Assembly (NCBI GenBank): GCA_965369325.1
Contig: CBDUQI010000002.1
Coordinates: 5,873-69,872 of the forward strand
DNA length: 64,000 bases
Source: an uncultured Gammaproteobacteria bacterium
GTDB lineage: Bacteria; Pseudomonadota; Gammaproteobacteria; Steroidobacterales; JBCBZW01
Direction: 5' to 3'
Numbering within the stretch: position 1 is the stretch's first letter; each line of letters starts with the position of its first letter. Positions 15,760 through 49,843 of this stretch are shown here, piece by piece. Below the pieces are notes generated by a model. The model did not search any database. It saw only the letters and a program-made list of their open reading frames with translations, and was not told the DNA's origin. The position numbers were made by a program, and so were the translations under genes.

Positions 15760-15883
15760 TAGCCCGTAAGTCCTTAGGTGCTGTCGTTACGATGCTGTCG
15801 GTGACATGCTGGTTACACAGCCGTTGCTTGAACGCGGCGTAAGCGGTCGCGTCAAGGTCTTGCCTGCTGTATGGTTCGCGCCC

Positions 15884-23642: not shown

Positions 23643-25061
23643 GTGCTGCACCGGATACTTAAAACTTTATCGCTTTTGCTGCTGCTTAGCGCCTGCGCCG
23701 GGCCCGCACCACCGCCCATCCCGCATGTGGATATGCAGGGTTTGCCGGATGCCGTGTCCTCGCAACTTAACGCCAGCCTGCAGCAAAGTGCGGCCGCACG
23801 GGCAGGCTCCGAACAGTTTGCGGCCGTCAACGGCACCCTGGCGATGCAACTTCATGTGTACGGGTTTTTGCCGCAGGCGCTTGTGTGTTATGAGCGCGCA
23901 CTATCGGCCCGTCCGGAGACCTTCGACTGGCATTACCTGCGCGCAGATGTGCTGGCCCGTCTGGGCCACGCGCAGCAGGCACAGGCCGCGTTTAACGACG
24001 CACTGGTGCGCGCGCCTGACAACCTGGATGCGCACCTGCGAATAGCGGATCTCAGGCTCAATGCCGGCGATGCCGCCGGTGCGCTGGTGACGCTGGGCAA
24101 CGTTGGCCACGAGCAATACCCGCAGGCGACGACGCAGTTTCTGTTGGGTCGGGCCAGGCATATGCTGGGCGATCACACCGTCGCCCGTGATCACCTGAGT
24201 AACGCGCTGAGCCAACGCGGTTCGTTCGGCGCCGGGCACTATGCGCTGGCCAACGTTTATCGTGCGTTGGGCGAGGATGCGTTGGCCCGTGCGCAGTTGA
24301 GCAAGTTTGAATCTGTGCGCAACGTCAAGTTACTGCTGGACCCTCGGATGCGTGCGCAGCTCTCTGCGATGGTTGCCAGCGACCGGCGCGACGTGCTGGA
24401 GGCAACCACTCACGCTAGCAAGGGCGAGATACAAAAGGCGATTGCGGCCTATCTGCGGGCGAGTGCTACCGATCCGGACAACGCCAACACGCATGCCTCG
24501 CTGGTGGGGTTGTACGCGCTGGCAGGCGAGGTCGAGCGCGCGCAGGAACACTTCCAGCGGGCGAGCGAGCTAACTCACGCGTTGCCGCGGGCATACGCGA
24601 ACATGGGGTTGGCATACGCGCGCAGTGGGCAAACCGAAGCGGCGGTAGAGCGATATCGCCAGGCGGTACAGCTGGAGCCGCACGACCCACAATTGAGTGC
24701 GACTTACGCCAACACCCTGGAGCGCAGTGGTGCGCTGGAGGCAGCTATCGCGGAGCATCAGCGGATGCTCACTAACGAGCCGGCGGCCGGGCCCACCCGT
24801 GTCGCGCTGATTCGACTACAGGGTGCGCGCGGCCGACATTCGCAGGTTCAAGTCTTGTTGGCGCAAAGTCGTGCGCTGGCAGACGCCTGGACCGTACCGG
24901 CGTTGCGCCAGGGGGCGACACAGGCCCTCGCATCAGGCGATGTCACGGCCGCCGTTTCGTTGTTAGAAGAGGCGGCCGCGCTGGCCGGTGCGCGCGGCGA
25001 GCACGCCAACCTCGCCGGCGCAAACGCAGAGCTCCTGCGAATTCAGGCAGGCCAGCAATGA
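23643..25061 (+). CDS. TPR-repeat lipoprotein (paralog family A)
   Basis: Lipobox LLLLSAC. TPR-like repeats throughout. The stop overlaps the next start (ATGA at 25058). Confidence 0.8.
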   Translation: MLHRILKTLSLLLLLSACAGPAPPPIPHVDMQGLPDAVSSQLNASLQQSAAARAGSEQFAAVNGTLAMQLHVYGFLPQALVCYERALSARPETFDWHYLRADVLARLGHAQQAQAAFNDALVRAPDNLDAHLRIADLRLNAGDAAGALVTLGNVGHEQYPQATTQFLLGRARHMLGDHTVARDHLSNALSQRGSFGAGHYALANVYRALGEDALARAQLSKFESVRNVKLLLDPRMRAQLSAMVASDRRDVLEATTHASKGEIQKAIAAYLRASATDPDNANTHASLVGLYALAGEVERAQEHFQRASELTHALPRAYANMGLAYARSGQTEAAVERYRQAVQLEPHDPQLSATYANTLERSGALEAAIAEHQRMLTNEPAAGPTRVALIRLQGARGRHSQVQVLLAQSRALADAWTVPALRQGATQALASGDVTAAVSLLEEAAALAGARGEHANLAGANAELLRIQAGQQ

Positions 25062-26791
25062 GCGACGCGCCTGGCATACGCGTCGCAGGCGCCAGCGTTT
25101 TTCTGCTGGCGCTGGCCGCGTGCAACGCCCCACCTGATGAGCCTCATCAGCCTGCCACGCAGTACTTTAGCGATGTCACCGATGCTGTCGGGCTGGCGTT
25201 CACCCATTTCTCCGGCGTAAGCGGCCAGTATTACTTCAGCGAGATTATGGGCGCCGGTGGCGCGCTGCTGGATTACGACCGCGATGGCGATCTGGACATC
25301 TATCTACTGCAAGGAGTTAGGCCACCGGACACCTTGCCCGATGCGCTGGTGTTCGATCCGCCCCGGCGGCCAGGCAACCGCCTGATGCAAAATCAGCTTT
25401 TTCCCCGAGGCCAGCTCCGGTTCGAAGACGTGACCGATGCCAGTGGCACCAACAACGCGCTCGGCGACGGCATGGGCATCGCGGTTGGGGATATCGACAA
25501 CGATGGGTTTGACGATATCTATCTGGCCAACTTCGGCCCCAATGTGCTGCTGAAAAACACAGGCGACGGCCGCTTCACCGATGTGACCGCAGCGGCCGGC
25601 GTGCAGGATGATCGCTGGAGCAGCAGTGCTGCTTTTGTGGACTACGATCTGGATGGCGATCTGGATTTGTTCCTCGCCAGCTACGTCTCCTTTCAGTACG
25701 CTCTGAATAAACGTTGCAACGGTGCCGGCGGCCAACGCGATTACTGCACGCCGCTTAACTATCAGCCATTGAGCGATCGCCTGTTTCGCAACGACGGCCA
25801 CGGCACCTTCGAAGATGTGACGCTGAGCGCGGGAATTGCCGGCGCCCGTGGTTCTGGCCTGGGTGTCCTCGGTGCTGACTTTAACGGTGACGGCTGGCCG
25901 GACATCTACGTAGCCAACGACGGGCGACCCAATGTTTTGTGGATAAACCAGACCGACGGCCGCTTTGAAGATGCTGCCCTGATGGCTGGCGTGGCCTACA
26001 ACGCCAACGGTGCCGCCGAGGCTAGCATGGGCGTGGCGGCGGGCGACTTTGACGGCGATGGCGATGAAGACCTGTTCATGACTCATCTGGCCAACGAAAC
26101 CAACACGCTTTACCTAAACGATGGGGCGGCCGGGTTCGTGGACGCCACCGCACCTCTGCAACTTGGCCTCCCCAGTCTGCCCTACACCGGCTTTGGCACC
26201 CGGTGGCTCGACTACCAGAACGATGGTGCGCCGGATCTGTTTGTGGTCAACGGCGCAGTGACGTTGGAAATCTCACAGCAGGGTGAACCCTTCCCCTACC
26301 GTCAGCCTGATCAGTTATTTCTTAACCACCGCGGCGAAGGGTTCGCCGTGGTGGCCGCACCGGCTGGTGCGCCGCCGGCGCAGATGCGGGTCGGCCGCGG
26401 GCTCGCTAGCGGTGATGTGGATGGTGATGGCGATACCGATCTGCTGGTCACCAACAACAACGGGCCCGCGCAACTGCTGCTGAACAATCAGTCCGATGGC
26501 AACTACTGGTTGGCAGTGCAGGTGCAGGGCGTAGCGGCCAACCGTAATGCTTATGGTGCGCGCGTGGCATTGGTGCGCCAGGATGGCAGTCGGCTGTGGC
26601 GCCGGGTACACAGCGATGGCAGCTACCTGAGCGCCAGCGATCCACAGTTGTTGTTTGGCTTGGGCCAAGACCCCGCGCATCAGGCGCTAATCGTGCACTG
26701 GCCAGGTGGTGTGCGTGAACAATGGCCCGCCCAAACCCCCAATACACGCGTGACACTGGTGCAGGGCGCTGGCCAGGTTTTGCGGGACTAG
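25058..26791 (+). CDS. CRTAC1-family lipoprotein (FG-GAP/VCBS repeats + ASPIC/UnbV C-terminal domain)
   Basis: Lipobox LALAAC. Repeated Ca-binding loops (DYDRDGDLD, GDIDNDGFDD, DYDLDGDLD, DFNGDGWPD, GDFDGDGDED, GDVDGDGDTD). C-terminal NRNAYGARVAL...DGSYLSASDPQLLFGLG. Confidence 0.85.
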   Translation: MSDAPGIRVAGASVFLLALAACNAPPDEPHQPATQYFSDVTDAVGLAFTHFSGVSGQYYFSEIMGAGGALLDYDRDGDLDIYLLQGVRPPDTLPDALVFDPPRRPGNRLMQNQLFPRGQLRFEDVTDASGTNNALGDGMGIAVGDIDNDGFDDIYLANFGPNVLLKNTGDGRFTDVTAAAGVQDDRWSSSAAFVDYDLDGDLDLFLASYVSFQYALNKRCNGAGGQRDYCTPLNYQPLSDRLFRNDGHGTFEDVTLSAGIAGARGSGLGVLGADFNGDGWPDIYVANDGRPNVLWINQTDGRFEDAALMAGVAYNANGAAEASMGVAAGDFDGDGDEDLFMTHLANETNTLYLNDGAAGFVDATAPLQLGLPSLPYTGFGTRWLDYQNDGAPDLFVVNGAVTLEISQQGEPFPYRQPDQLFLNHRGEGFAVVAAPAGAPPAQMRVGRGLASGDVDGDGDTDLLVTNNNGPAQLLLNNQSDGNYWLAVQVQGVAANRNAYGARVALVRQDGSRLWRRVHSDGSYLSASDPQLLFGLGQDPAHQALIVHWPGGVREQWPAQTPNTRVTLVQGAGQVLRD

Positions 26792-27155
26792 CGGCATTTC
26801 GCGCAAACCGATCGCGTTTTGGTTATTGCCGGGCGAGGCGGGTTGAAAACTCTCACGCACCAGTGATCCCAAGCGGAGCGTTGCAAGCGCATGGCTGCGG
26901 TCTTGTTAAGTATTGGAAACTAAGACGGAAGTCGGCCCTACTGCTGGGCGCATTCGGACGCTGCGATGGCGCAAGTGGACAACCGTTGGCGTTTGAAAAT
27001 TCGTGCTGCAGTGCGCTCGTGCTGGTGCGGCTCTGAACGCTGTACTAAGATTATGTTACCCACGTTCCTTGGGGAAAACCCGGCGCATTGCCAACCGCAA
27101 TGGCCTGCGCAGGGAGGCGGATAAGGAAAGCACAAAAATTGTCAGGAGGGGAACT

Positions 27156-27815
27156 ATGCGATATCTCGTTAAGCGCGCACTTGGGTGTGCACTGTTTGCG
27201 ACGATGCTCATCAGTGGCGGAGCTTTTGCTGCAACCACTGCTTATATTTCCGGCCCGGATCTGGGGCTTGAGATTCCGGATAACAATCCGGACGGCTTGA
27301 CCACCACGCTCACCGTCGATGACACCGGTGTTGTGGGTGATGTGTCGGCAGTTGTTATCAGCGCGGACCACACCTGGGTAGGTGATCTGGTTGTTACGCT
27401 GACAGCACCTGATGGCACATCGGTGACGCTGATGGATCGTCCGGGCGTCGTCGATGACATCTGTTGCGGTAACGGAGCAGACATCAGTGCCAGCCTGGGC
27501 TTGGTATTCAGCGATTTGATTCCGCTGCCTGCTGAGGGCGCGGGCGCCAACGGTTGTGGAGCAGTCGGCGTTGATTGCGGCCGTGCCTTTGGTCCGGAAA
27601 GTGCGTTGAGCGCACTAGCAGGGGTGGAAGTCTCGGGCGACTGGACCTTGAGCATTTCCGATAATGCGGGTGCCGACGTTGGCACGCTAAACGGCTTTTT
27701 CCTGGTGGTTGAGACGGGCGAGTCTTCTCGCGCGGCCATGCCAATGCCAGCGATTGCCTTACTACTGTTCGCCGGCATCGCCGGTGCAGGCGTAATGCGC
27801 CGCCGCCGCAGCTAG
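27156..27815 (+). CDS. Stand-alone proprotein-convertase P-domain protein with PEP-CTERM-like C-terminal anchor
   Basis: RBS CAGGAGGGG. Signal peptide ending AFA. P-domain pattern IPDNNPDGLTTTLTV...VVISADHTWVGDLVVTLTAPDGTSVTLMDR...GDWTLSISDNAGADVGTLNGF. Tail PMPAIALLLFAGIAGAGVMRRRRS. Confidence 0.75.
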   Translation: MRYLVKRALGCALFATMLISGGAFAATTAYISGPDLGLEIPDNNPDGLTTTLTVDDTGVVGDVSAVVISADHTWVGDLVVTLTAPDGTSVTLMDRPGVVDDICCGNGADISASLGLVFSDLIPLPAEGAGANGCGAVGVDCGRAFGPESALSALAGVEVSGDWTLSISDNAGADVGTLNGFFLVVETGESSRAAMPMPAIALLLFAGIAGAGVMRRRRS

Positions 27816-27833
27816 GACAACAACACGTCCTCG

Positions 27834-27867
27834 GAACCCCGTCACTTGTGGCGGGGTTCTGTCTTTT
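27834..27867 (+). terminator. Rho-independent terminator after the P-domain gene
   Basis: GAACCCCG-(10 nt)-CGGGGTTC is a perfect 8-bp stem, followed by tgtcTTTTc. Confidence 0.7.
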
Positions 27868-27873
27868 CGGCCT

Positions 27874-27902
27874 TTGCATGCTATCGTCTCGCGTTGATTA
27901 AT
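27874..27902 (+). promoter_or_regulatory. Candidate sigma70 promoter for the 27941-44095 operon
   Basis: TTGCAT (27874-27879), a 17-nt spacer, then ATTAAT (27897-27902), 38 nt upstream of the ATG. By-eye match only. Confidence 0.35.
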
Positions 27903-27940
27903 AGCGCTTTTCCCGGCGCCACTATCGAGACCTCCTGCGC

Positions 27941-28933
27941 ATGTACTACGCGGCCGCCTGCCAAACCAACTTTCCCTCACCCGCCGAGCGCTCGGAAATA
28001 CCCGAACGCACACGCCGGATGTGCCAGATTATCGAGCAGACCATCACCGGCTACGAGCCGTTTTTTGATGTTCGACTGTTGGTGTTCCCGGAGTTTGCGC
28101 ATGCCGTGCCGGCGTACCCGACGGCGGCGGAGCTAAGGCGTCGTCTGGCCGTCAGGCTGCCCAATGAGCACACCCAGGCCTACGAAAGGCTGGCGGCAAA
28201 GTACGGCTGCTACATCCAGAGCGGTACTTTTCTGGAAATTGATGATACGTATCCGGATGCGCTCTTTAACACCACGGTGCTGATTGGCCCTGATGGAGTG
28301 TTGAGCAAATACCGTAAGGTGAATACCTGGATCCCGTGGGAGGTGCATACCAGCCCCCACGATATAGAGGGTTACGCGCCCGAGCCGTTCCCGGTAGTCG
28401 ATACTGAGCTCGGTCGTCTTGGTGTGGCGATCTGTTACGACTGGCTATTCCCCGAGACGATTCGGCAAATTGCCTACAACGGCGCCGAAGTGATCATCCG
28501 CGTCTCCGCCTATATGGATCCTTGGGGCACCGCCAGCCCGATGGACTGGTGGACGTTGATTAACCGCACCCGGGCGCTTGAGAATACCGCCTACGTAGTG
28601 GCCTCCAATCAGGCGGCCAGTTTTAAGAACTATCCGCCGTTCAGTTGGCCGGGCGGCAGCATGGTGGTGGATTATGACGGGCGTGTGCTGGCTCAGGCAG
28701 ACCCTGGTCCGGCAGAAAAAGTGGTGGTCGCGCCGATTGACATCAACGCGTTGCGCAGCGAGCGCGCGCGCCGCCGCGGGCACGATATGCGCTCGCATCT
28801 GCGCAGTGAGATTCACACCTACGCCGCGCAGCCGATGCTGGCCCGTGCGGGCGATCAGCCGATTGATATCGACTCGCTCAATGTGCGTATCGCCGAGGCC
28901 AAACAACGTCTGCCGGGGGCGGATGAGCAATGA
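27941..28933 (+). CDS. Carbon-nitrogen hydrolase (nitrilase superfamily; aliphatic amidase/formamidase-like)
   Basis: Catalytic E-K-C context: LLVFPEF, KYRKVNTWIPWE, VAICYDWLFPE. No signal peptide. The stop overlaps the next start (ATGA at 28930). Confidence 0.85.
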   Translation: MYYAAACQTNFPSPAERSEIPERTRRMCQIIEQTITGYEPFFDVRLLVFPEFAHAVPAYPTAAELRRRLAVRLPNEHTQAYERLAAKYGCYIQSGTFLEIDDTYPDALFNTTVLIGPDGVLSKYRKVNTWIPWEVHTSPHDIEGYAPEPFPVVDTELGRLGVAICYDWLFPETIRQIAYNGAEVIIRVSAYMDPWGTASPMDWWTLINRTRALENTAYVVASNQAASFKNYPPFSWPGGSMVVDYDGRVLAQADPGPAEKVVVAPIDINALRSERARRRGHDMRSHLRSEIHTYAAQPMLARAGDQPIDIDSLNVRIAEAKQRLPGADEQ

Positions 28934-31900
28934 GCGCAGGGTCCGATAAACTGCAGACGCTGCCGGCGTTGATCATGAGCGTAACCTTACTTTGTGTGAG
29001 CGCCTGCGATCGCGCCCCGAACCAGCCCCCGCTTGAGGACAACGCTGCGCCGACGGTGGCCGCCGACCGCCCAGGCGCGGCGCTGATTGCGCTGAACAAT
29101 CGCGGTGTCGCCCTGATGGGGTACTTCGACTACACCGGTGCACGCGATGTCTTCGCCCGGGTGGTCAGGCAGGCCCCTCGGTGGCACCAGGCACAGGTGA
29201 ATCTGGCGATTGCTACCCTGAACCGCCAGCAGCCCGATGATGAAACCCTGGCACTGCAGATCTTGCAGCAGGTGCTGGACGCTGAGCCCGCGCACGTGCG
29301 TGCCAACTACGTGGCGGGGCTGTTGAGGCTGTATCTGGGGGAGTTCGAGCAGGGCACAACACATTTTGAGCAAGTGCTGGCACAGGACAGCGGCGATGCG
29401 TATGCGCACTACTACCTGGGCCAGATTCAAGCTCAACAGGGGCAACTGGCGCCAGCGCTCAGCCGATTCGAGCGGGCGATCGCGCTTGAGCCCTACCTGA
29501 GCAGCAGTTACTACGGGGCAGCGCTGGCGCTGCGGCGCCTGGATCGGGCTGATGAGGCTAGGCAACTGCTCGGCACCTACCAGCGGCTGGAGGACAATCC
29601 GCGCGCTCGGCTGGCGGAATTCAAGTACACCCGGATGGGCCCGAAGGCCGAGGCGTTGGCATCGGGGCGCCCGACAGCGCCAGCACCCGCGCTGCCATCA
29701 GGCGATCTGTTTACGCCGGCCGAGCAAATACTATCGGGTGACTTGAGCACGAGCCACTTGAGTACGGCAGACATCAACAACGATGGTTTGCAAGACATCT
29801 TTCTTGGCGGCGCGGCGGACAGTCAGGTACTACTGGCCGGCGCGTCGGGTTACGTGGTGGATACCTCACACGCACTGGCTGGCATCGGCCAGGTGCGCGC
29901 TGCCTTGTGGGGCGACGTCAACAACGATGGTAATACGGATGTCTACCTGTGCCGCGCTGGGGCCAATCAACTGTGGCTGCAATCGGCCGGCGAATCAGGC
30001 GCGCCGACACAGTGGACTCGCGCGCAGGGCGATGTGGTAGCGGACGGCGTGCGCACCTGCCTCGATGCCGGCCTGTTCGACGCCGATCACGACGGTGATC
30101 TGGACGTTTTCATCGTTAACGCCAATGGCGAGGACGTGCTGCTGAACAATAACCTGGATGGGACTTTCAGGCGCTTGCAGGATCTACCCTCAACCGCACC
30201 GACAAGTTCTCCCGCGTCGCGTCAGCAACTTAGCGTCGACCTGGACGGCGATCGCGATGTAGACATTGTGGTGCTCAACGGCGATGCGCCGCATGTCGTT
30301 TTGTCCAACGATCGGCTTTGGCTGTACCAGTCCGCAACCGGCTTTGAGCGGTTTTCGCAAACCCCGGCGGTGGCCGTGACCGCAGGCGATGTGGATACCG
30401 ATGGTCAAGTGGAACTGTATACCCGCACGCCCGATGGTGCGTTGTGGCGCTGGGTGGATGCGGCGGATGAGGGTTGGGTCTCTGCCCGGATCAGCGCACC
30501 TACGCAACCGGGTGCAGGCGTCTTAATGCTACAGGACTTCAACGGCGACGGTCAGGCCGAGTTGCTGTCGGGAGACGCATCGGGCTGGCGTGTGCTGCGC
30601 CTCAATGGCGAGCACAATGCACAGGTGCTGTACGCCGCTGATGCGCCCGCCACGGCGCCAATAGCGTTGCTGGAAAGCGTTCAAGCAGGCCCTTCGGTGG
30701 CCGCCGCCGGGCTAGATGGATTGCAGCGTTGGCAGCCCGGACCCGGCCGTTATCCATTTGCCGCCTTCTCCTTCAGCGGCAAGGAGGAGCAGGCGGAGTC
30801 GATGCGCTCCAATGCGTCCGGTATCGGTACACGGGTGTCGCTGCGCAATGCCACGCAATGGAGTGTGAGCGACACGTTCGACAAACATTCCGCGCCGGGG
30901 CAAAGCCTGCAACCTTTGAGCATTGGTTTGCGCGGTGCCGCTGCGGCCGACTTCGTCGCATTGGATTGGTCCGACGGCGTGTTTCAGACGGAGCTTGATC
31001 TGGCCGCCGGGCAGCGTCATCAGATTGCGGAGACCCAGCGTCAGCTTGCCAGTTGTCCGGTGTTGTTCGCGTGGGATGGCAGTGAGTATCGATTTGTCAC
31101 CGATCTTCTTGGGGTCGGTGGTATCGGATTCTTCGCCTCGCCTGGGCAGTACAACACCCCGCGCCCGTGGGAGCATGTGTTGCTGCCTGCAGGCGCACTG
31201 GCCGCCCGCGAGGGGATGTTCGAACTAAAACTTACCGAGCCCATGGAGGAGATTGCGTACGTGGACTCGCTCGCACTGGCCGTGCACGATGTGCCGCCCG
31301 GCTGGCACATGATTCTGGATGAGCGTATGGCCACCGACGCCCATCAGCCCAGTGGCGAGCCGGTGTTTTTCCGGCGCAGTGTAAGTGTGCAGCATGCTGA
31401 GAACGAACGTGGCGATGAGGTGACCGCCAGCCTGCAGCACGCCGACCTGCAAGCCGCCCCGCCCGGGACTCTGGACGCGCGCTTTATTGGTCGGCTGGCG
31501 GGTGAGCATGTGTTGACGCTGACGTTCGATAAGCCGCTGGATCAAACGCCCGGACAGCCCGTGCTGGCCGCGGACGGCTGGGTTGAGTACCCGTATTCGC
31601 AAACTGTATTTGCCGCGTGGCAGGCCGGGGAGTTTTATCAGTCGCCGAGCCTGGAAGCGCAGGGGGAGGACGGCGTGTGGGTGAGCCTGCTGCCCAGCTT
31701 TGGTTATCCGGCGGGCATGCCGCGCGAGATGAGTGTCGCACTGAATAATCTGCCGGCGGGTAGTCGGCGGCTGCGACTGCGCAGCAATCTTGAAATCTAC
31801 TGGGATCGCATTCGCGTGGTCTATCGCGAACCCGCGCCGCCGGCAGCGGTGACCCGAGTGCTTAGGCCTGACCGCGTGCGCTTATCACAGACGGGCTTCC

Positions 31901-32286: not shown

Positions 32287-32295
32287 GCGGCACTT

Positions 32296-35148: not shown

Positions 35149-35149
35149 T

Positions 35150-37033
35150 ATGACGCAACGCAAGCGCGAAGTTCAAAGCGACGCCACCCCGGACGCTGAC
35201 GACGCCATCATTGCCCGCGCGCTGCGCTGGTCATTGGGCCTGGGGGTGCTGGGGCTGGTGCTACTTGCCCTCGTGTTGGTGCTGTGGCGAGCCGGGCAGG
35301 CACCAGCGCCGATTGAGACCGCGGTGGTAGAGGCGCCCGTGGCCAGGGTGCCGAGCGCGCTATCGGCGCTGCCTGCTCTGCCGTTTACTGACATCACCGA
35401 GGAGGCGGGCATCGCTTTCGTACACCGCAATGGTGCCTATGGCGAAAGCCTGTTGCCGGAGACTATGGGCGGTGGTGTCGGTTTTGCTGATATCGATAAT
35501 GATGACGATCCGGATCTGATTCTGGTCAACGCTCAGCCCTGGCCCTGGCGTGCGCCGCAGGCGGAGGCGGATGGCGCTACCGAGGCAGGTGTGGTGCTTT
35601 ACCTGAACGATGGCAGCGGCCATTTTTCTGAGGTTAGCGCAAGCGCCGGACTGCAGGCGCCAGCGTACGGCATGGGGTTGGCCGTGGGCGATTACAACGG
35701 CGATGGTCTGGAGGATATTTACGTGACCACGCTTGGCACCAACCGGCTGTATCGCAATGCCGGCGATGCGCGTTTCGTGAACGAGACGGCGACCGCAGGC
35801 GTTAGCGGAGATGCCGACGACTGGAGCACCGGTGCTGCGTTTTTTGATTACGACAACGACGGCGATCTGGATTTGTTCGTAACCAGCTATGTGCGATGGT
35901 CGCGCGAGCTGGATCTGGAGGTGGACTATCGTCTGGCTGGTATCGGCCGCGCCTACGGCCCGCCCGGCAACTACGCGGGTTCTCACTCGCGCCTGTATCG
36001 CAACGACGGCCCGGCCAGCGATGGCAACGTGCGCTTTGCGGACGTGTCGGTCGCCGCCGGCATTCATGTAGCCAATCCGGATACCGGCTTTCCAATGGGC
36101 AAGGGGCTGGCGGTCATGCCGGTCGATACCGACCTGGACGGTTATCTGGATGTGGTGGTGGCGAATGACACCGTGCGGAATTTTCTCTTCCGTAATCTTG
36201 GCGATGGAACGTTTACCGAAACCGGTACACTGGCTGGTCTGGCCTTCGATAACTCCGGCAGTGCCACCGGCGCGATGGGTATCGATGGCGGTCACTACAA
36301 CAACGACGATGATCTGGCCATTGCGATTGCCAATTTCGCCAATGAGATGACCTCGTTTTATGTCGCCCCGCAGGCCAGTGGCCTGTTTAGCGACGATGCC
36401 ATCGTGCTGGGCATCGGCCCCGACAGCCGGCGTGTGCTGAGCTTTGGCGTGTTCTTTGCCGATCTTGATCTGGACGGACGGCTGGATTTTTTCCAAGCCA
36501 ACGGGCACGTGGAAGATGAAATTAATTTGGTTCAACCCAGTCAAACCCACGAGCAGGCCGCGCAGGTGTTCTGGAACTGTGGCGATACGTGTCAACGCAT
36601 GTTTGTGCCACTGCCGGGCGATACACTGGGCGATCTGGCGCGCCCGCAGGTGGGCCGCGGCGCAGCCTATGCCGATATTGATGGCGATGGCGATCTGGAT
36701 TTGGCGTTAACTCAGGCGGGCCGGGCAGCACGCCTGTTGCGCAACGATCAGCGTCAGGGTGGGCACTGGCTGCGTCTGAGGTTGCGCGGTGCCGGTATGA
36801 ACCGCTCGGCCATCGGCGCGCGTGTAGAGGTACAGGTCGATGGCGTGACCCAGCGGCGCACGGTGATGCCGGCCCGTGGCTACCTCAGCAGTATGGAGCC
36901 GGTGCTCAGTTTTGGTCTTGGGTCGGCCCGGGAGGTGCAGCGAGTGAACGTCACCTGGCCCGATGGTCGCCGCAAAGTGATTGAGAATCTAGCCGCCGAT
37001 GTTGAGTATCGTCTGACTCAGGGCGAGGAGTAG
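35150..37033 (+). CDS. CRTAC1-family protein, N-terminal signal-anchor
   Basis: TM segment LGLGVLGLVLLALVLVLW. FG-GAP/VCBS loops (ADIDNDDDPD, GDYNGDGLED, DYDNDGDLD, DTDLDGYLD, ADLDLDGRLD, ADIDGDGDLD). C-terminal NRSAIGARVEV...GYLSSMEPVLSFGLG. Confidence 0.85.
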   Translation: MTQRKREVQSDATPDADDAIIARALRWSLGLGVLGLVLLALVLVLWRAGQAPAPIETAVVEAPVARVPSALSALPALPFTDITEEAGIAFVHRNGAYGESLLPETMGGGVGFADIDNDDDPDLILVNAQPWPWRAPQAEADGATEAGVVLYLNDGSGHFSEVSASAGLQAPAYGMGLAVGDYNGDGLEDIYVTTLGTNRLYRNAGDARFVNETATAGVSGDADDWSTGAAFFDYDNDGDLDLFVTSYVRWSRELDLEVDYRLAGIGRAYGPPGNYAGSHSRLYRNDGPASDGNVRFADVSVAAGIHVANPDTGFPMGKGLAVMPVDTDLDGYLDVVVANDTVRNFLFRNLGDGTFTETGTLAGLAFDNSGSATGAMGIDGGHYNNDDDLAIAIANFANEMTSFYVAPQASGLFSDDAIVLGIGPDSRRVLSFGVFFADLDLDGRLDFFQANGHVEDEINLVQPSQTHEQAAQVFWNCGDTCQRMFVPLPGDTLGDLARPQVGRGAAYADIDGDGDLDLALTQAGRAARLLRNDQRQGGHWLRLRLRGAGMNRSAIGARVEVQVDGVTQRRTVMPARGYLSSMEPVLSFGLGSAREVQRVNVTWPDGRRKVIENLAADVEYRLTQGEE

Positions 37034-37080
37034 ATGCAGCAGGCACCCGGTGGTACATCTGCTGCTTCGGAGGACAATCA

Positions 37081-38886
37081 TTGATTGCATGTAAGTACAT
37101 ATCGAGCGCGCGGCCGCGCCCCACGGCGTTGTCCTGGGTGGCAGGGCTGGTACTGGGGCTAAGTAGCGTCGTAGCCCTAGCGCAAACGCGGCCGGGCATG
37201 TTTGTAGACGTCGCGCACAGCAGCGGGCTGGACTTTGTACACTTTAATGGCATGTCCGGAAAATTGTATTTTCCAGAGATGATGGGGGCAGGTGCCGCGT
37301 TGTTTGACTACGACAACGACGGTGATCTGGACGCTTACTTGGTACAGGGGCATCTGCTTGGCGAGGGCGTTGCAATGGCGCAGGCCGCACAGAAACCGCC
37401 GCACCCACTACCGCTGCGTGATCGCCTGTTCCGCAACGATACTCGTATCGGCAAGGACGGCGCTATCAACATCCGCTTTACCGATGTGACGCCGGCCAGC
37501 AAGCTTGATGCGCAGGGCTACGGCATGGGGGTGGCTGCCGCCGATTACGACAATGATGGCTGGGTGGACCTGTACGTAATGAACTATGGGGCAAACCAGC
37601 TGTGGCACAATCGCGGCGACGGCACGTTTGAGAACGTGACCGATCGGGCTGGGGTTGGCGATGCGCGCTGGAGCGTGAGCGGCTCGTTCGTGGACGTTGA
37701 TGCGGACGGTCTGCTGGATTTATACGTCGGGAACTATGTTAAGCATAATTTGCGCAACCGACGTGAGTGCGTGTTGTCCAATCGAATAGCGGACTATTGT
37801 GGGCCCTTGAAAAGCGCAGGTGAGAAAGATCGCCTATATCGTAATCTAGGCGATGGAAAATTTGAGGACGTGGCAGCGCGCGCTGGCACGCAACGTGCCT
37901 GGGGCGGCGCATTGGGCGTGATCACCGCCGACTACAACGCCGATGGACACACCGATATTTATGTGGCCAATGATGGCGTGCCCAATCAACTGTGGGTCAA
38001 TCGGGGCGACGGCACGTTTGTTGACGATGCACTGCTGGCGGGTGTGTCGGTGAACGGCGACGGCATGGCCGAGGCCAGTATGGGTATTGATGCCGCTGAT
38101 TTCGACGGGGATGGTGATACCGATTTGTTCATGACGCATTTGCGCAGCGAGACCAACACGCTGTACGTGAACGATGGTAATGGCTGGTTTGAGGATGAGA
38201 CATTGAAAATGGGCCTCGCGAATCCCAGCATCCCTTACACCGGTTTTGGTATGGCATGGTTTGATGCGGATAATGACGGCTGGCTGGATTTGCTGGCGGT
38301 GAACGGCGCAGTGCGAAAAATCGAGGCCCTGATTGATGCGGGCGACCCCTATCCCTTGCATCAGCGCAACCAGTTGTTCATGAACAGCGGCGATGGGCGC
38401 TACCGCGAACGCACCGCAGCCACCGGTGCTGGCGCCGTGTTTGATTTGTCCGAGGTTAGCCGTGGCGCTGCGTTTGGCGATATCGACAACGACGGCGATG
38501 CCGATGTCCTGGTGACCAACAATGCCGGTCCCGTACGCTTGCTGCGCAATGATGCAGGCGCTGGCGCGGCTTGGTTAGGCTTGCGTTTGCTCGACGGCAA
38601 ACGCGATGCGCTGGGCGCGCGTGCCGTGCTGCAGGATGGCCGTCACCTAACCCGTCGTGCCCGCAGCGATGGTAGTTACGCCAGCGCTAACGATGCGCGC
38701 ATTATTTTTGGCTTGGGCCGCAGGCTGAACACCGCCCCGAAGGCGCCAAAGCATTTTGAAGTGAACATTATCTGGCCGGGCGGGCAGCAGGAGACTTATC
38801 GTGGGCTTGCCCCATCTCGCTACCACACGTTGCACCGCGGTCAGGGCGAGAAGTCGCCCGGCAAGCCAGAGGCAGAAGCAGGTTAA
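37081..38886 (+). CDS. CRTAC1-family secreted protein
   Basis: TTG start with GGAGG 7 nt upstream. Signal peptide ...LVLGLSSVVALAQT. Motifs YFPEMMGAGAALFDYDNDGDLD, ADYDNDGWVD, DFDGDGDTD, GDIDNDGDAD. C-terminal ALGARAVL...DGSYASANDARIIFGLG. Confidence 0.85.
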   Translation: MIACKYISSARPRPTALSWVAGLVLGLSSVVALAQTRPGMFVDVAHSSGLDFVHFNGMSGKLYFPEMMGAGAALFDYDNDGDLDAYLVQGHLLGEGVAMAQAAQKPPHPLPLRDRLFRNDTRIGKDGAINIRFTDVTPASKLDAQGYGMGVAAADYDNDGWVDLYVMNYGANQLWHNRGDGTFENVTDRAGVGDARWSVSGSFVDVDADGLLDLYVGNYVKHNLRNRRECVLSNRIADYCGPLKSAGEKDRLYRNLGDGKFEDVAARAGTQRAWGGALGVITADYNADGHTDIYVANDGVPNQLWVNRGDGTFVDDALLAGVSVNGDGMAEASMGIDAADFDGDGDTDLFMTHLRSETNTLYVNDGNGWFEDETLKMGLANPSIPYTGFGMAWFDADNDGWLDLLAVNGAVRKIEALIDAGDPYPLHQRNQLFMNSGDGRYRERTAATGAGAVFDLSEVSRGAAFGDIDNDGDADVLVTNNAGPVRLLRNDAGAGAAWLGLRLLDGKRDALGARAVLQDGRHLTRRARSDGSYASANDARIIFGLGRRLNTAPKAPKHFEVNIIWPGGQQETYRGLAPSRYHTLHRGQGEKSPGKPEAEAG

Positions 38887-38892
38887 CAATCA

Positions 38893-40626
38893 ATGATGAG
38901 ATTTCCCCCAAACGCAGTGCGTATTGCGTCGGTTAGATCCGATGACCGATCATTCCCCGTCGCGGCGTCACGCGCGATGAAGAGCATGCTAATCGGCGCT
39001 GTGATCAGCGTGATGATCGGCGTCGTTCCGGGCGGCCCGAGCGGCATCGCGCACGCGGTCACGGGCGAGGCGCAAGCCGCTGCTGCGACGCCGGCAGCAT
39101 CGGTGGTGAATGTACCGCACCCGCAATACGATCAGCTTAAGCCACTGGTGCGCAGCCAGCTTGAAACCGCACGCGGGCAGTTTGATCGCACCTTGTCCAG
39201 TCCCTCGGCCGGACGTGAGCACGGGGTTGCATACGGACGGCTTGGCATGCACTACCAGGCCCATCAGCAGCAGGCGGCAGCGCGTGCCTGCTATGTGAAC
39301 GCGGCACTGCTTGATGCGCAGAATTTCCGCTGGCCCTATCTTCTGGCGGTGTACCATGAGGAAGCGGGCGAATTGCTGGAGGCGAGCGAGCAGTATCTGC
39401 AGAGCGTGCGACTTAACCCAGACAGCGTCGCCGGTGCCGTGCGATTGGCGCGGGTGTTGATTCAGCTCGAGCGCCTGGACGGGGCGCAGTCACTGTTAGA
39501 TCAAGTGCTGGCGGCGGAGCCTAAACACGCGGCTGCACTGGCCGCGCTTGGCGACATCGCGGCGGCGCGCGATGAGCACTCCAAGGCCGTCGAGTACTAC
39601 AACGCGGCGCTAGCGATCCAGCCGGAAGCCAGTCAGCTCACCTATCGTGTGGGTATTTCCTACCGGGCGCTGGGCCAGTTGGAGCAGGCACGTACGGCGC
39701 TTGAGCAGCGCGGTGAGCGCATTCCAAGCATTGCCGATCCGCTGCTCGCCTTTGTGCAGGGGCACAAGCTGGGGTCGAGCTTCTTTGTCTCTGAGGGCGA
39801 TAAAGCCATGCGCGGCGGGGATGTTGAGACAGCCGCACGGCTTTTCGATGCCGCCGCGGCGATCAACCCTGAAGATCCGCGTGCCTTGCTGGGGCTGGGC
39901 CAATCACTAGGTGCGGTGGGCAAGCTGGACAGCGCCATTGCCCGGTTCGATCAGGTGCTGCAGATTCAGCCCTACAACACCAATGCGCACTACTTTAAAG
40001 GCGCGCTGCATGAGATCGACGGCGACGACGATCAGGCATTAAGGCATTTTCGCTCAGCAGTGAGCGAGGAGAATGCGCACTTTGAAGCCACCTTTATGCT
40101 GGCCAATGCACTGTTGCGCAAGCGCTTGTTTGACGAGGCGGCGGTGCAATACGGACGCATCGCCAAGGCGCGGCAGGACCCAGAGTTTTTGTATCAGGAA
40201 GGCGTGGCGTGGTTGGCCGGGCAGCGTTGCGGCGCCGCGCAAAACGCGTTGATGGCGGCGGTGACCGTAAAGCCTTCTGATCAGCGTTACATTCAGGCCG
40301 TCTCGCGTTTGTTTTCGGTATGCGAGACGGGGCCAACGCAAAAAGCCACAGCACTGGAGTACGCCCAGCGCTTGTACGATGCACACCCCGGCCTTGAAAC
40401 ATCGGTGTCGCTGGCGATGGCAATGGCCGCCAACGGGCGGTTCGAAGATGCCATCGATTTTCAAACCCAGGCGATTTTTGAAGCCCTAAAGGCCAACATG
40501 GCGGGCATGCCTGAAATTCTGGCAGCCGACCTGGATCGCTATCGCGAGGGTAAGCCGGCTGAGCTCGCGTGGCCGCACGAACATTCCATTTACCAACCGG
40601 CGCGTTTGACGCTGGACCGGCTGTAG
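38893..40626 (+). CDS. TPR-repeat secreted protein (paralog family A)
   Basis: TPR repeats throughout. A signal-like MKSMLIGAVISVMIGVVPGGPSGIAHA begins at ATG 38977, which may be the true start. Confidence 0.75.
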   Translation: MMRFPPNAVRIASVRSDDRSFPVAASRAMKSMLIGAVISVMIGVVPGGPSGIAHAVTGEAQAAAATPAASVVNVPHPQYDQLKPLVRSQLETARGQFDRTLSSPSAGREHGVAYGRLGMHYQAHQQQAAARACYVNAALLDAQNFRWPYLLAVYHEEAGELLEASEQYLQSVRLNPDSVAGAVRLARVLIQLERLDGAQSLLDQVLAAEPKHAAALAALGDIAAARDEHSKAVEYYNAALAIQPEASQLTYRVGISYRALGQLEQARTALEQRGERIPSIADPLLAFVQGHKLGSSFFVSEGDKAMRGGDVETAARLFDAAAAINPEDPRALLGLGQSLGAVGKLDSAIARFDQVLQIQPYNTNAHYFKGALHEIDGDDDQALRHFRSAVSEENAHFEATFMLANALLRKRLFDEAAVQYGRIAKARQDPEFLYQEGVAWLAGQRCGAAQNALMAAVTVKPSDQRYIQAVSRLFSVCETGPTQKATALEYAQRLYDAHPGLETSVSLAMAMAANGRFEDAIDFQTQAIFEALKANMAGMPEILAADLDRYREGKPAELAWPHEHSIYQPARLTLDRL

Positions 40627-40638
40627 AGCCCGGCGGGC

Positions 40639-42435
40639 GTGGGGCAGTGTTCGCGCCAGCCAGCATCGGCGAGCCGGCGACCGTGCACCATGCCGGGTGC
40701 TGGCCGTGTCGGTGTCATCAAGAGCACGGCGTTGGCAGTGCTTGCCACCGTAGCGCTCGCGGGCTGTAGCGAGCCCGGTACCCAATCGGGCCCAGGTACC
40801 CAATCAGATTATGAGCCCACGCTCTTCGAAGACCGGGCGCAGGCGTCCGGTCTGCACTTTGAGCATGCCAACGGCATGGTGGGCGAGCTGTATTTCGCCG
40901 AGATGATGGGCGCAGGTGCGGCACTGTTTGACTACGACGGCGATGCCGATCTGGATGTCTGGCTAGTGCAGGGCGGTAATCTGGGCGCCGACGCTACGCC
41001 AGTCAACCGGGCCGATCAGCTTTTTCGCAACGACAGCGCCGACGGCCAGCTACGCTTTACCAACGTCACGCAACAGGCGCAAATCGCGGCCACCACCTAC
41101 GGCATGGGTGTTGCCATTGGCGACATCGATAACGATGGCGATGAAGATGTATTCCTGAGCAACTTCGGCCCCAACCAGTTGTGGCGCAACAATGGCGACG
41201 GAACGTTTACGGACATCAGTGCCAGCGCGGGTGTGGGTGATACTCGCTGGAGTGTTAGCGCCAGTATGGCGGACCTGGATGGCGACGGCTGGTTGGATAT
41301 CTACGTCGGCAATTACGTCAGCTACACCATCGCGGGCCATAAGCCCTGCCGCTCGACCACCAGCGCACGCGATTACTGCTCGCCGCTGGTGTACCGCCCG
41401 CAAGGCGACCGACTGCTGCGCAACGCGGGCGATGGCCGCTTTGAAGATGTGACGGGTGCTAGCGGCGTGGGCGGTGCCCGCGGTGGTGCGCTGGGCGTCA
41501 GTGTGGCGGACTTCAACAGCGACGGCCGCCCCGATATCTATGTGGCGAACGATGGCGTGGCCAATCTGCTGTGGATTAATCAGGGCGGCATGCGCTTTGT
41601 TGAGCAGGCCGCGCTGGCGGGGGTTGCAGTGAATATGAGCGGCGCGCCGGAAGCCAGCATGGGCGTGGATGCGGGCGACTTCGACGATGATGGCGATGAG
41701 GATTTGTTTATGACTCATCTAGCCCGCGAATCCAACACGCTGTATCTGAACGACGGCAAGGGCTGGTTTGAAGACCGCACTGTGGGCATGGGGCTGGCCG
41801 GGCCAAGCCTGGCGGCGACGGGTTTCGGCACCGGCTGGTTTGACTACGACAACGACGGCACGCTGGATATCTTCGCGGCCAACGGCGCGGTTACCCGATT
41901 ACAGGCACAAATGGATGCCGGGCTCGCGCACCCGTTGCGACAGCGCAACCAGCTGTTCCGCGGCGAGTCAGGCACCGGGTTTGTCGAGGTGAGTGCCACT
42001 GCAGGCGCGGCCTTTCAGATCGAGGATGTCACCCGCGGTGCAGCCTTCGGGGATGTGGACAACGATGGTGACACCGACATCGTGGTCACCAACAACAACG
42101 GCCCAGCACGTTTGCTGATTAATCAGGCGGGGCAGCAGCAGGTCTGGCTGGGGCTGCAACTAACAAGTACGCAGGGGCGCCCGGCATTAGGTGCACGCGT
42201 GCGTGCAACATTGCGCGGTCGCGGCACCGTGTGGCGCCGTGCGCGCAGCGATGGCAGCTACGGCTCAAGCCGCGATTCGCGTGTGTTAATCGGCCTGGGG
42301 CGGGGCGATGCCGCGCAAGGCGCGGTTGAGGCGATTCATGTTTATTGGCCGAATGGCGGGTCTGAGGATTTCGGCGCGCTCGCGCCCGGGCGGTACCACC
42401 AGTTGGTACAGGGGCAAGGTCGTGCGCTGCAGTAG
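40639..42435 (+). CDS. CRTAC1-family lipoprotein
   Basis: Lipobox VALAGC (the start may be ATG 40690). YFAEMMGAGAALFDYDGDADLD, GDIDNDGDED, DLDGDGWLD, DFNSDGRPD, GDFDDDGDED, GDVDNDGDTD. C-terminal ALGARVRA...DGSYGSSRDSRVLIGLG. Confidence 0.85.
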   Translation: MGQCSRQPASASRRPCTMPGAGRVGVIKSTALAVLATVALAGCSEPGTQSGPGTQSDYEPTLFEDRAQASGLHFEHANGMVGELYFAEMMGAGAALFDYDGDADLDVWLVQGGNLGADATPVNRADQLFRNDSADGQLRFTNVTQQAQIAATTYGMGVAIGDIDNDGDEDVFLSNFGPNQLWRNNGDGTFTDISASAGVGDTRWSVSASMADLDGDGWLDIYVGNYVSYTIAGHKPCRSTTSARDYCSPLVYRPQGDRLLRNAGDGRFEDVTGASGVGGARGGALGVSVADFNSDGRPDIYVANDGVANLLWINQGGMRFVEQAALAGVAVNMSGAPEASMGVDAGDFDDDGDEDLFMTHLARESNTLYLNDGKGWFEDRTVGMGLAGPSLAATGFGTGWFDYDNDGTLDIFAANGAVTRLQAQMDAGLAHPLRQRNQLFRGESGTGFVEVSATAGAAFQIEDVTRGAAFGDVDNDGDTDIVVTNNNGPARLLINQAGQQQVWLGLQLTSTQGRPALGARVRATLRGRGTVWRRARSDGSYGSSRDSRVLIGLGRGDAAQGAVEAIHVYWPNGGSEDFGALAPGRYHQLVQGQGRALQ

Positions 42436-44095
42436 CAGGTTTCGGTGTGCGCGTGCGCGTACCCGTGCGGTGCCAGCGGGCCGGCGTTTAGCGCTGGGCT
42501 GGTATCTGTGCGGTTGCATGTTACTGAGTGCGTGCACGCCGGGCGAGCCGGTTAGTTCTGCCGCTTCATCCGCTGATCCGGCCCTCACAGGTTTACGTTT
42601 TCCGGATGTCTCGCATCTAGAACCCAGCGTGGCCGAGGCCATTGTGGAGGGGCGCAGGCAGCTGGAGGCCGCGCAGGATGCGGGTGATGCTTCGCGCATT
42701 GCGGCGCAGTACGCGGCGCTCGGCCGGTTGTTCCAGGCGCACCATCTTCAGGAGGCCGCAGTCGCCGCTTATCGTCACGCGCTCGCGGGCGATGCCGACA
42801 ACGTTCAATGGCACTACCTGCTGGCGCTCGCTGCGGCCGACAGCAACGCGTCGGCGGAGGCGAGCACACATCTAAAGGCGGTGCTAGCGTTGCAGCCGGA
42901 TTACGCACCTGCCTGGATTCGATTGGGTCGAATAACACTGCAATCGGGACACGACATTGATGCGCGCGCCGCGTTCGAGCAGGCGCAGGCGTTGCTCGAG
43001 AGCGCCGCCGCCCACGAGGGGTTGGCCCGGGTCGCGCTGATGCAGAACGACCCGCAACGCGCCGCCGGGCACCTGGAGCGAGCCCTCGCAATACAGCCTC
43101 AGGCGACACGGTTGCGTACGCCGCTGGTGCAGGCTTATCGCAAGCTGGCTCGCACCGAGGAGTTGGCTCGTCTGGTGCCGCAGCTGGCGCCGGATGGGGG
43201 TGTGCCTGTGAGTTTCGAGGACCCCTGGTTTGAGCAGCTTGCCGGGTTGGTGCGCAGCTCGCAGTTTTACCTGCAACAGGGCCAGGCCCGCATCGCGCAG
43301 CAGGACTACCGGGGGGCAGCCGAGCAGTTCGGGCTGGCTGTTCAGGCCAACCCGCAGGACGCCGCCGCGCATGCCACTTACGGTCGCGCGCTGGAGCGCT
43401 TAGGGGCGCGGGAGCAGGCGCATGCCCAGTACACGCTGGCCCTGGGCTTGGTGCCTACACATGCGCAGGCCAATTACTTTCTGGGCGCGATGCTCTTCCG
43501 CCAGGGCGATGAGCAGGCTATGGCTTACTTTGAGCGCGCGGTGGTCGCCGACCCTCAGTATTTGCAGCCGCGCTATCTGCTGGCCGCGCAGCGGCTGCGC
43601 GAGGCGCGTTACGCGGAGGCGGCCGTGCACTACAGGGCGTTGGTAGGGGTTCAGCCGCAGTCGCTGGAGCCCCGATACTGGCTGGGTCTAGCGCACCTGA
43701 TGGCGGGTGAGTGCGAGCCGGCGCTGGCTGCGTTGGGTGCGGCCGAGCGCATCGCCAGCGGCAACGGTCTGGTTATGCAGGCTTCTGCTCGTGCGATCGC
43801 CGTTTGCGTCGGGACGCCGCCAGCGTTGGACAAGGCGTTGGAATTTGCCCGCACGGTACTGGAGGCAAAGCCGGACGCGGAATCACACGCGACGCTTGCG
43901 ATGGTACTGCAGGCGCGTGGGGATCAGGCGGGCGCTTTGCATCAGGTGGAGGCAGCGGAAAAACAACTGGCGTCGAACGCACCTGTACGCGAGTGGTATC
44001 AGCAGCTTCGCAGGCAGCTTCAGGATAATGCGGATGCGCCCTTGCCGTGGCCGCCGACCAGCCCCACGGTTCGCCCGCAACTCCCTCGCCTGTGA
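42422..44095 (+). CDS. TPR-repeat lipoprotein (paralog family A)
   Basis: Lipobox CMLLSAC. TPR repeats throughout. The start is GTG 42422 (14-nt overlap with the upstream gene) or GTG 42470. The track start at 42308 lies inside the upstream gene and was rejected. Confidence 0.75.
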   Translation: MRCSSRFRCARARTRAVPAGRRLALGWYLCGCMLLSACTPGEPVSSAASSADPALTGLRFPDVSHLEPSVAEAIVEGRRQLEAAQDAGDASRIAAQYAALGRLFQAHHLQEAAVAAYRHALAGDADNVQWHYLLALAAADSNASAEASTHLKAVLALQPDYAPAWIRLGRITLQSGHDIDARAAFEQAQALLESAAAHEGLARVALMQNDPQRAAGHLERALAIQPQATRLRTPLVQAYRKLARTEELARLVPQLAPDGGVPVSFEDPWFEQLAGLVRSSQFYLQQGQARIAQQDYRGAAEQFGLAVQANPQDAAAHATYGRALERLGAREQAHAQYTLALGLVPTHAQANYFLGAMLFRQGDEQAMAYFERAVVADPQYLQPRYLLAAQRLREARYAEAAVHYRALVGVQPQSLEPRYWLGLAHLMAGECEPALAALGAAERIASGNGLVMQASARAIAVCVGTPPALDKALEFARTVLEAKPDAESHATLAMVLQARGDQAGALHQVEAAEKQLASNAPVREWYQQLRRQLQDNADAPLPWPPTSPTVRPQLPRL

Positions 44096-49747: not shown

Positions 49748-49843
49748 GCCGATTTTAGGCAGATTTGAGCGCTTTTTTGATGCGCTAGAAGCTTGGCGCT
49801 AACAGTATTGGGATCCTCTGTTTACCTCTGGAGGAGTCCAATA

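Follow-up and report, generated by a model that had tools for sequence, protein, structure and literature searches.

Membrane anchors that contact the quinone pool and are joined to periplasmic c hemes are known from CbcL of Geobacter and from NrfH, CymA, and TorC. Bacterial CRTAC1/ASPIC-UnbV proteins, by contrast, have no function that we know of, and none emerged from the literature searched on the structure of human CRTAC1. Among pentaheme cytochromes, MccSep of Geobacter sulfurreducens is a selenoenzyme composed of a pentaheme cap and an immunoglobulin-like (Ig-like) stem, which is needed for the respiration of elemental sulfur and in which hemes 1, 3, 4, and 5 are bis-His ligated, while heme 2 is His/Cys-ligated beside the selenocysteine (bioRxiv 10.1101/2025.11.18.688581). 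A CRTAC1-family gene is furthermore flanked by the clusters of hydrazine-synthase (HZS) homologues found in non-anammox bacteria (PMC12758564). Here, we analyze a stretch of 64,000 nucleotides from an uncultured gammaproteobacterium (contig CBDUQI010000002.1, positions 5,873 to 69,872), referred to as the window, in which a cluster of tetratricopeptide repeat (TPR) and CRTAC1-type genes (23643–44095) surrounds a multiheme cytochrome, CYT6 (32296–35148), and its downstream propeller gene, CRT7 (35150–37033). Positions are those of the window, and all cluster genes lie on its plus strand.

The CYT6–CRT7 pair

Full-length homologues of CYT6 number in the thousands, and the best 120 (the window's own protein excluded) are 58–65% identical to it across 95% or more of the length. 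Across phyla, full-length identity within the family stays at 55–65%. A scan of one-genome-per-species assemblies yielded at least 594 stretches that encode a relative, and the family falls into 601 clusters at 50% identity. Gammaproteobacterial carriers include Rariloculaceae, Lysobacterales, Arenicella, Oceanococcus, and Pseudoalteromonas sp. SSM20, while the Planctomycetota are represented by Rhodopirellula europaea 6C, Stieleria mannarensis, and Saltatorellus ferox Poly30. Further carriers belong to the Verrucomicrobiota, Acidobacteriota, Latescibacterota, and Methylomirabilota, together with one betaproteobacterium.

The window proteins were compared with all open reading frames (ORFs) of 81 fetched loci, 65 of which have enough flanking sequence to reveal the downstream gene. 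In 61 of these 65, distributed over at least five phyla, the cytochrome gene is immediately followed by a CRT7 orthologue, most commonly with a 4-nt overlap; CRT7-type orthologues score 560–750 bits and are thereby separated from other propellers (100–450 bits). Even two remote relatives with 36–38% identity still adjoin a CRTAC1-type gene. No other gene family is universal beside the cytochrome in the 81 loci, and the position directly upstream is occupied by an orthologue of FUS5, a TPR–propeller fusion, in 8 of 51 loci and by the amidase CNh4 in 10 of 51. Two close gammaproteobacterial relatives share the order CNh4–FUS5–CYT6–CRT7, which is followed by CRT8–TPR9 in one (L016) and by a TPR9-like gene in the other (L040). 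The cluster is thus layered: a universal pair of CYT6 and CRT7, a frequent module of CNh4 and FUS5, the optional modules TPR1–CRT2, CRT8–TPR9, and CRT10–TPR11, and an unrelated P-domain gene. Because the cytochrome-then-propeller order is conserved in so many loci across phyla, a functional link between the cluster genes is supported. Synteny in relatives, on which the first-pass annotation had staked its reading of the locus, is accordingly present in several phyla; what is conserved, however, is a unit of two to four genes, not the one of eight to eleven genes that had been proposed.

Within individual loci, further genes accompany the cytochrome. Around the remote system of L088 (1–14205) lie genes for three proteins of the FGE-sulfatase family, a Sortilin/BNR propeller, a multiheme cytochrome of 1013 aa, and a giant protein of 3261 aa. 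In a metagenome-assembled genome of the Planctomycetota (L003, 9525–9911), a truncated-haemoglobin gene (Bac_globin) separates the cytochrome from the FUS5-like gene. A gene for a small PEP-CTERM protein directly follows the cytochrome in L085 (20431–20946), which, given the similar tail of the window's P-domain protein, may be a coincidence.

CYT6 begins with a membrane domain (32296–32880), for which the AlphaFold2 (AF2) model contains five helices (residues 21–54, 61–92, 98–121, 133–159, and 166–187), and not the single transmembrane (TM) segment of the earlier description; the five CXXCH motifs and the C-terminal TPR domain named there were recovered. Four histidines are invariant in 24 sequences and conserved among 102 family members wherever the membrane domain is present: His70 and His88 are located in TM2, 18 residues apart, and His143 and His157 in TM4, 14 residues apart, and the two pairs occupy matching membrane depths. 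Two histidine pairs placed in this way in TM helices are typical of membrane-spanning diheme b proteins such as FdnI, HydC, NarI, and cytochrome b. L088, a remote locus, encodes the membrane domain in a gene of its own (197 aa) directly upstream, which retains the same four histidines with spacings of 18 and 14. Most likely, the four conserved histidines bind two b-type hemes. A link of CYT6 to the quinone pool appears plausible, because the five-TM domain holds four conserved histidines in this 18/14 spacing, which are also kept in the split subunit. Positive charges, as read from the sequence, are found at the N-terminus of CYT6 and in the loops that follow TM2 and TM4, and this distribution places the C-terminal part of the protein in the periplasm, as required for the attachment of c hemes.

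The periplasmic core (32953–34347) consists of a five-heme cap (residues ~220–480) with the motifs CAECH, CAGCH, CTSCH, CGACH, and CNGCH, and an Ig-like β-sandwich (residues 489–684). It is followed by a TPR arm (34420–35079; Pfam TPR_19, 5e-11), whose helices (residues 709–928) are modeled with a predicted local distance difference test score (pLDDT) of ~90 and give MamA-like TPR matches. In the full-length AF2 model (pLDDT 70), the β-sandwich and the TPR arm are confident. A fold search with the whole protein returned only TPR matches (MamA and designed TPRs) and was uninformative on the core; for this reason, a separate AF2 model of residues 191–705 (pLDDT 72) was used. With this sub-model, the best Foldseek match is the pentaheme cytochrome c552 (5ZE8; E = 1.7e-12, target TM-score 0.58), and the match covers the cap as well as the Ig-like domain. 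At the sequence level, phmmer detects 5ze8 at 2.9e-4 and MccSep, weakly, at 0.05; this weak similarity to both runs through the motif C-x-E-C-H-x-[DE]-x-H-x-x-W-x-x-S-x-H. The NCBIfam ExtKL model also matches CYT6 weakly (5e-4). An α-helical heme cap followed by an Ig-like β-sandwich is the arrangement that characterizes c552/MccSep-type pentaheme cytochromes, and as judged from the predicted model, the periplasmic core of CYT6 belongs to this fold class.

All five CXXCH motifs are conserved in the family, both in the alignment of 24 sequences and in a wider one of 102 sequences that extends down to 34% identity, and 78 of 101 members carry five. Outside these motifs, only four histidines are universal in the wide alignment (H246, H364, H458, and H536), while Met434 (CHM), Lys384 (CHK), and Tyr256 are conserved as well. 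Because four universal distal histidines face five hemes, the alignment suggests that one c heme of CYT6 is not bis-His ligated, which would parallel MccSep, although the chemistry would be another one, and this special heme is possibly catalytic. The CXXCK motif that marks the catalytic heme of NrfA-type pentaheme nitrite reductases is not conserved in the close family, whose invariant cysteines all reside inside CXXCH motifs. The best-conserved stretch of CYT6 follows heme 4 and contains NxY[KR]WLRGQNHYD, LSGVSGHG, and SFYYP. As a lead, the position of the MccSep heme-2 ligand, ~14 residues past the heme-4 motif, would fall near Arg398 of CYT6 by a fragment-based count that is not an established alignment.

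CRT7 is a membrane-anchored CRTAC1-type propeller with FG-GAP_3 (9e-33) and UnbV_ASPIC (4e-22) domains, and phmmer relates it to human CRTAC1 (9etn) at 1.4e-22. When the window's own sequence and 62 orthologues are aligned, 61 of these 63 CRT7-type sequences have a TM anchor, a hydrophobic stretch of the uncleaved type ~31 residues ahead of the domain, and none has a lipobox. By this predicted topology, CYT6 and CRT7 are both located in the inner membrane and face the periplasm, because the CRT7-type anchor comes without a lipobox. Most of the residues that are invariant among CRT7 orthologues are Asp, Asn, or Gly in loops of the calcium type, and a few others (His453, Glu455, Trp131, Trp250, Trp475, Lys318, and Arg427) are specific for CRT7.

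Accessory modules and surroundings

All 11 ORFs of the cluster share one orientation and are located where the first-pass annotation had placed them, and Pfam bears out every domain that it had named. The junctions measure, in order, −4, +211, +125, −4, +9, +1, +47, +6, +12, and −14 nt, which confirms the tight spacing from 27941 to 44095 (−14 to +47 nt) and the two ATGA overlaps, at 25058 and 28930, of the earlier description. The four CRTAC1-type paralogs (25058, 35150, 37081, and 40639) likewise carry the lipoboxes, signal peptide, and signal anchor assigned to them; their FG-GAP_3 matches range from about 1e-33 to 1e-47 and, together with UnbV_ASPIC, all exceed the Pfam cutoff. Judged by these matches, the cluster propellers are true members of the CRTAC1/ASPIC family. 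CRT2, CRT8, and CRT10 form a type-B group with ~50% mutual identity, from which CRT7 is separated as a subfamily of its own (33–37%).

Each type-B propeller is paired with a TPR gene. The TPR lipoprotein TPR1 (23643–25061; Pfam TPR families, 1e-25; lipobox LLSAC) overlaps by 4 nt with the lipoprotein CRT2 (25058–26791; FG-GAP_3 4.5e-41, UnbV_ASPIC 2.6e-13) to form one accessory module. CRT8 (37081–38886; FG-GAP_3 8e-47), which has a signal peptide, pairs with TPR9 (38893–40626; Pfam TPR families, 1e-25), and the lipoprotein CRT10 (40639–42435; FG-GAP_3 5.8e-47; lipobox LAGC) pairs with the lipoprotein TPR11 (42422–44095; Pfam TPR families; lipobox LLSAC), for which the start is uncertain between GTG 42422 and ATG 42308. 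The three TPR proteins had been described as paralogs with a common W(H/P)YLLA pattern. Pfam confirms their TPR nature, but the motif is restricted to TPR9 and TPR11, which are 28% identical over their full length, while TPR1 is a distant relative of both (22% identity, E 1e-5 to 1e-3).

No propeller of the window stands without a TPR partner, be it adjacent in the three pairs, fused in FUS5, or provided by the TPR arm of CYT6 that precedes CRT7. Beyond the window, further loci have the CRT8–TPR9 pair, 10 of 13 type-B propeller genes have an adjoining TPR gene, and one more is fused to a TPR. Fusions occur in both orders, as in FUS5 and, reversed, in L001. Mainly because of these gene fusions and adjacencies, TPR and propeller parts are likely to associate physically.

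FUS5 (28930–32286) is a lipoprotein in which Pfam finds the TPR, FG-GAP propeller, and ASPIC/UnbV parts of the fusion recognized at first reading, although UnbV_ASPIC (20.4 bits) stays under its cutoff of 23.4. They are followed by a C-terminal region of ~420 aa; its 418 residues (~31030–32283) match no Pfam family, and no sequence match to the PDB has its best stretch there. The Asp after the FUS5 lipobox was considered as an inner-membrane retention signal and dropped, since this residue varies among orthologues (E, D, G).

CNh4 (27941–28933) is a cytoplasmic amidase of the nitrilase superfamily (CN_hydrolase, PF00795, 2.5e-40, 138.9 bits versus a cutoff of 23.2), as called before, with an invariant triad of Glu51, Lys126, and Cys165 and no signal peptide. 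Scores against the named NCBIfam families remain far below their thresholds (formamidase, 110 versus 406 bits; aliphatic amidase, 77 versus 427 bits). Among proteins of solved structure, CNh4 is closest to yeast Nit3 (YLR351C), to formamidases, and to other enzymes of the nitrilase superfamily (~1e-20). Orthologues are 70–78% identical, and in four of four loci examined the CNh4 orthologue lies beside a FUS5-type gene, three of them also having the cytochrome and CRT7. In L084, a gene of the CCP_MauG diheme peroxidase family (4165–5373) is found 5 kb from a cluster of amidase, FUS5, and propeller/TPR genes.

Between CRT2 and CNh4 lies the P-domain gene, an ORF of 27003–27815 with a P_proprotein match of 2.9e-12, as the earlier domain call had it. 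Translation more likely starts at ATG 27156, which is preceded by an AGGAGG ribosome-binding site, and in this form (27156–27815) the match is 1.7e-12. The C-terminus of the protein carries a PEP-CTERM-like tail (VPLPA-CTERM, 22.2 bits, under the NCBIfam cutoff of 25.35). Although it had been counted as a cluster member, the gene is not conserved in related loci; it is an unrelated insert and a neighbor outside the conserved system. A strong terminator-like hairpin (27832–27861) separates it from the putative core operon; 8 of the 13 pairs in the stem are GC, a T-rich tail comes next, and the promoter suggested at 27874–27902 lies just behind. That candidate (TTGCAT-17-ATTAAT) is weak, as it matches 7 of 12 consensus positions and was not called by a consensus promoter scan. 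In an Rfam scan of 22000–45000, no riboswitch was found and the sole match was rnk_pseudo, the Pseudomonas rnk leader, at 27779–27868 (33 bits versus a gathering score of 55, E 0.03); it overlaps the hairpin and is probably due to chance. The aligned upstream regions of seven amidase genes share no common element, PADLOC defense models give no match, and NCBIfam holds no specific family for any cluster protein.

Elsewhere in the window, a second iterated cluster (51464–63570) encodes five Sulfotransfer_3 proteins, four of them fused to TPRs (51464, 53599, 55154, and 60610, minus strand) and one without TPR (57217). The protein at 60610 has an additional 2OG-Fe(II) oxygenase domain, and a separate 2OG-Fe(II) oxygenase is encoded at 59930–60580 (minus strand). 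A TPR and Asp/Arg β-hydroxylase protein (58575–59930, minus strand) has the same architecture as the TPR and aspartyl/asparaginyl β-hydroxylase fusion at 15806–17197. Further features are a 922-aa reprolysin-like (M12B) zinc metalloprotease with a DUF11 domain (9803–12571), and a Trans_reg_C and TPR regulator (48599–49747) adjoining a DsbC-type disulfide isomerase (49793–50584).

Proposed mechanism and alternative readings

We propose, with a probability of about one half, that CYT6 and CRT7 form a quinone-coupled periplasmic oxidoreductase in which the TPR arm holds the propeller, complemented by paralogous modules. The b hemes of the membrane domain would carry electrons between the quinone pool and the c hemes, and the five c hemes would provide the path from there to a reaction site at the heme that is not bis-His ligated. 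Meanwhile, the TPR arm would keep the membrane-anchored CRT7 against the heme cap, so that the propeller could act as a substrate-binding or specificity subunit. CNh4 and FUS5 form a second module that would provide a cytoplasmic C–N hydrolysis step and a second TPR–propeller unit, while the three other TPR/propeller pairs would serve as paralogous accessory modules. Whether the enzyme oxidizes its substrate and reduces quinone or works as a reductase is evenly balanced, since the cultured carriers are, to our knowledge, aerobic heterotrophs.

Several observations weigh against this proposal. Compared with known heme b- and quinone-binding families, the membrane domain hits only DUF4405, at E 0.001 and under the cutoff, and a comparison with PDB sequences gives no meaningful match; because no known b-type family matches by sequence, the binding of b hemes is something that we infer. 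The heme-cap region of the full-length AF2 model is of low confidence (pLDDT 35–65), and the heme ligands are assigned by counting conserved residues. In neither the 24- nor the 102-sequence alignment is a Cys outside CXXCH conserved, so that the catalytic Cys/Sec of MccSep is without counterpart, and CYT6 displays neither a Cys ligand to heme 2 nor a nearby Sec or Cys. The conserved residues of CRT7 include no clear redox-cofactor site. In L084, amidase, FUS5-type, and propeller/TPR genes occur with no CYT6-type cytochrome within 10 kb, and the cultured carriers, presumably aerobic heterotrophs throughout, give no clue to the substrate.

The first-pass annotation had envisaged an envelope complex in which TPR scaffolds arrange propellers around a quinol-linked electron conduit. 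Of this interpretation, the functional link, the likely TPR–propeller association, and the plausible quinone link stand; not everything is organized around the cytochrome, however, because TPR/propeller modules as well as the amidase and fusion pair occur in L084 with no cytochrome within 10 kb. The conduit role also needs qualification, as the heme domain fold includes a true enzyme, MccSep, and one heme is seemingly not bis-His ligated, so that CYT6 may be catalytic. We consider it unlikely that CYT6 is a pure conduit, which would relay quinol electrons to the propellers, to soluble carriers, or to an extracellular acceptor with no chemistry at its own hemes. The multiheme packing resembles c554, c7, and MtrC domains II/IV (Pfam), the close subfamily has numerous conserved histidines, the nearest structural relative c552 (5ZE8) is without known catalytic role, and PtdA-like relatives reside in porin-cytochrome-like clusters. 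Yet the outer-membrane β-barrel gene with periplasmic or extracellular decaheme partners that defines porin-cytochrome conduits (MtrCAB/Pcc) does not recur as a family in the 81 loci, CYT6 is the only CXXCH protein in the window, and with no conserved porin or second cytochrome gene nearby, the recurrent neighbors are propeller, TPR, and amidase genes only. Both core proteins are anchored in the inner membrane, and the number of universal distal histidines falls one short of the hemes. Moreover, the high identity across phyla and the invariant polar loops by hemes 4 and 5 look more like an active site than a wire.

Less likely again is an envelope role, in which TPR scaffolds and calcium-binding propellers bind or assemble envelope polymers or proteins, while the cytochrome supplies or senses redox equivalents in the manner of MsrPQ-like repair. 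FG-GAP/VCBS propellers elsewhere, such as Vibrio RbmC and Bap1, bind exopolysaccharide, the TPR proteins resemble the lipoprotein scaffolds PrsT, PilW, BcsC, and LapB (far under the NCBIfam cutoffs), TPR/propeller modules occur without the cytochrome, and PEP-CTERM-type proteins adjoin the cluster both here and in L085. However, genes for glycosyltransferases, export, or exosortases are not conserved in the neighborhood across the 81 loci, the dedicated cytoplasmic amidase is left unexplained, and a heme domain so highly conserved favors a defined chemistry. That expanded TPR and FG-GAP/ASPIC paralogs have come to lie next to an unrelated cytochrome by chance is highly improbable: such proteins are indeed expanded in many of these genomes, and the window itself has a second TPR-rich cluster at 51–63 kb, but the cytochrome–CRT7 order in at least five phyla, where the stop codon of the first gene mostly overlaps the start codon of the second, its persistence at 36–38% identity, and the CNh4–FUS5 adjacency in all four loci contradict it.

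Returning to the quinone-coupled oxidoreductase, a bolder form of it can be put forward only tentatively, and we regard it as doubtful: CYT6 and CRT7 could represent a widespread, unrecognized respiratory-type enzyme, in which the propeller would bind the substrate for a pentaheme catalyst coupled to quinone; together with the amidase, it would form a new pathway that oxidizes or reduces a small, possibly nitrogen-containing compound. If so, this would be the first biochemical role for the bacterial CRTAC1/ASPIC family, and should the substrate be a compound common in the sea or in soil, the enzyme would add a missing reaction to the element cycles driven by bacteria that are abundant in sediment and soil. 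In any case, the pairing with CYT6 provides the bacterial CRTAC1/ASPIC-UnbV family with a testable partner and a likely site, the periplasmic side of the inner membrane. Genetics and biochemistry are feasible in the cultured carriers Saltatorellus ferox Poly30, Rhodopirellula europaea 6C, Stieleria mannarensis, and Pseudoalteromonas sp. SSM20. The CYT6 family is very widespread and unusually conserved, yet we found no paper on it or on its fixed pairing with a CRTAC1-type protein; the full-text literature searched contains no description of a cytochrome–TPR/CRTAC1 system, although its coverage is short of all journals and an earlier report is possible.

Comparison with known systems

The likeness of CYT6 to CbcL and to NrfH, CymA, and TorC is one of logic only, as no sequence relation was found and those proteins have neither a TPR arm nor a propeller partner. 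PtdA (ptdABCDEFG, bioRxiv 10.1101/2023.11.21.568154) differs from CYT6 in being encoded with a porin and with tetraheme and decaheme proteins, and in lacking a TPR, a CRTAC1 partner, and a fused membrane domain. MccSep/ExtKL (PDB 9WT8–9WTC) shares with CYT6 the cap and the Ig-like stem as well as a weak sequence match at heme 1, and the pattern of four bis-His hemes and one special heme would be common to both. In contrast, MccSep is a soluble tetramer with a His/Cys-ligated heme 2 near Sec, and its gene name assigns it to the ext gene set and not to a place beside a CRTAC1 gene. Closer in fold is c552 of Thermochromatium tepidum (5ZE8), which also consists of a five-heme α-helical cap followed by an Ig-like β-sandwich and shares with CYT6 the motifs around hemes 1–3 and the heme-5 CxxCHMP. 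Unlike CYT6, it is a low-potential, soluble protein of ~400 aa with no membrane domain or TPR arm, and the sequence identity is ~15%.

On the side of the propeller, human CRTAC1 (9ETN) resembles CRT7 in combining an FG-GAP β-propeller with an ASPIC/UnbV domain. The human protein, however, is secreted into the animal matrix and has no cytochrome partner, whereas the bacterial ones are membrane-anchored or lipoproteins. The HZS-homologue clusters differ from the locus described here in encoding HZS α and β-γ homologues with no TPR or b-type domain, but they provide a second case of heme-c proteins that are encoded beside a CRTAC1-family FG-GAP protein.

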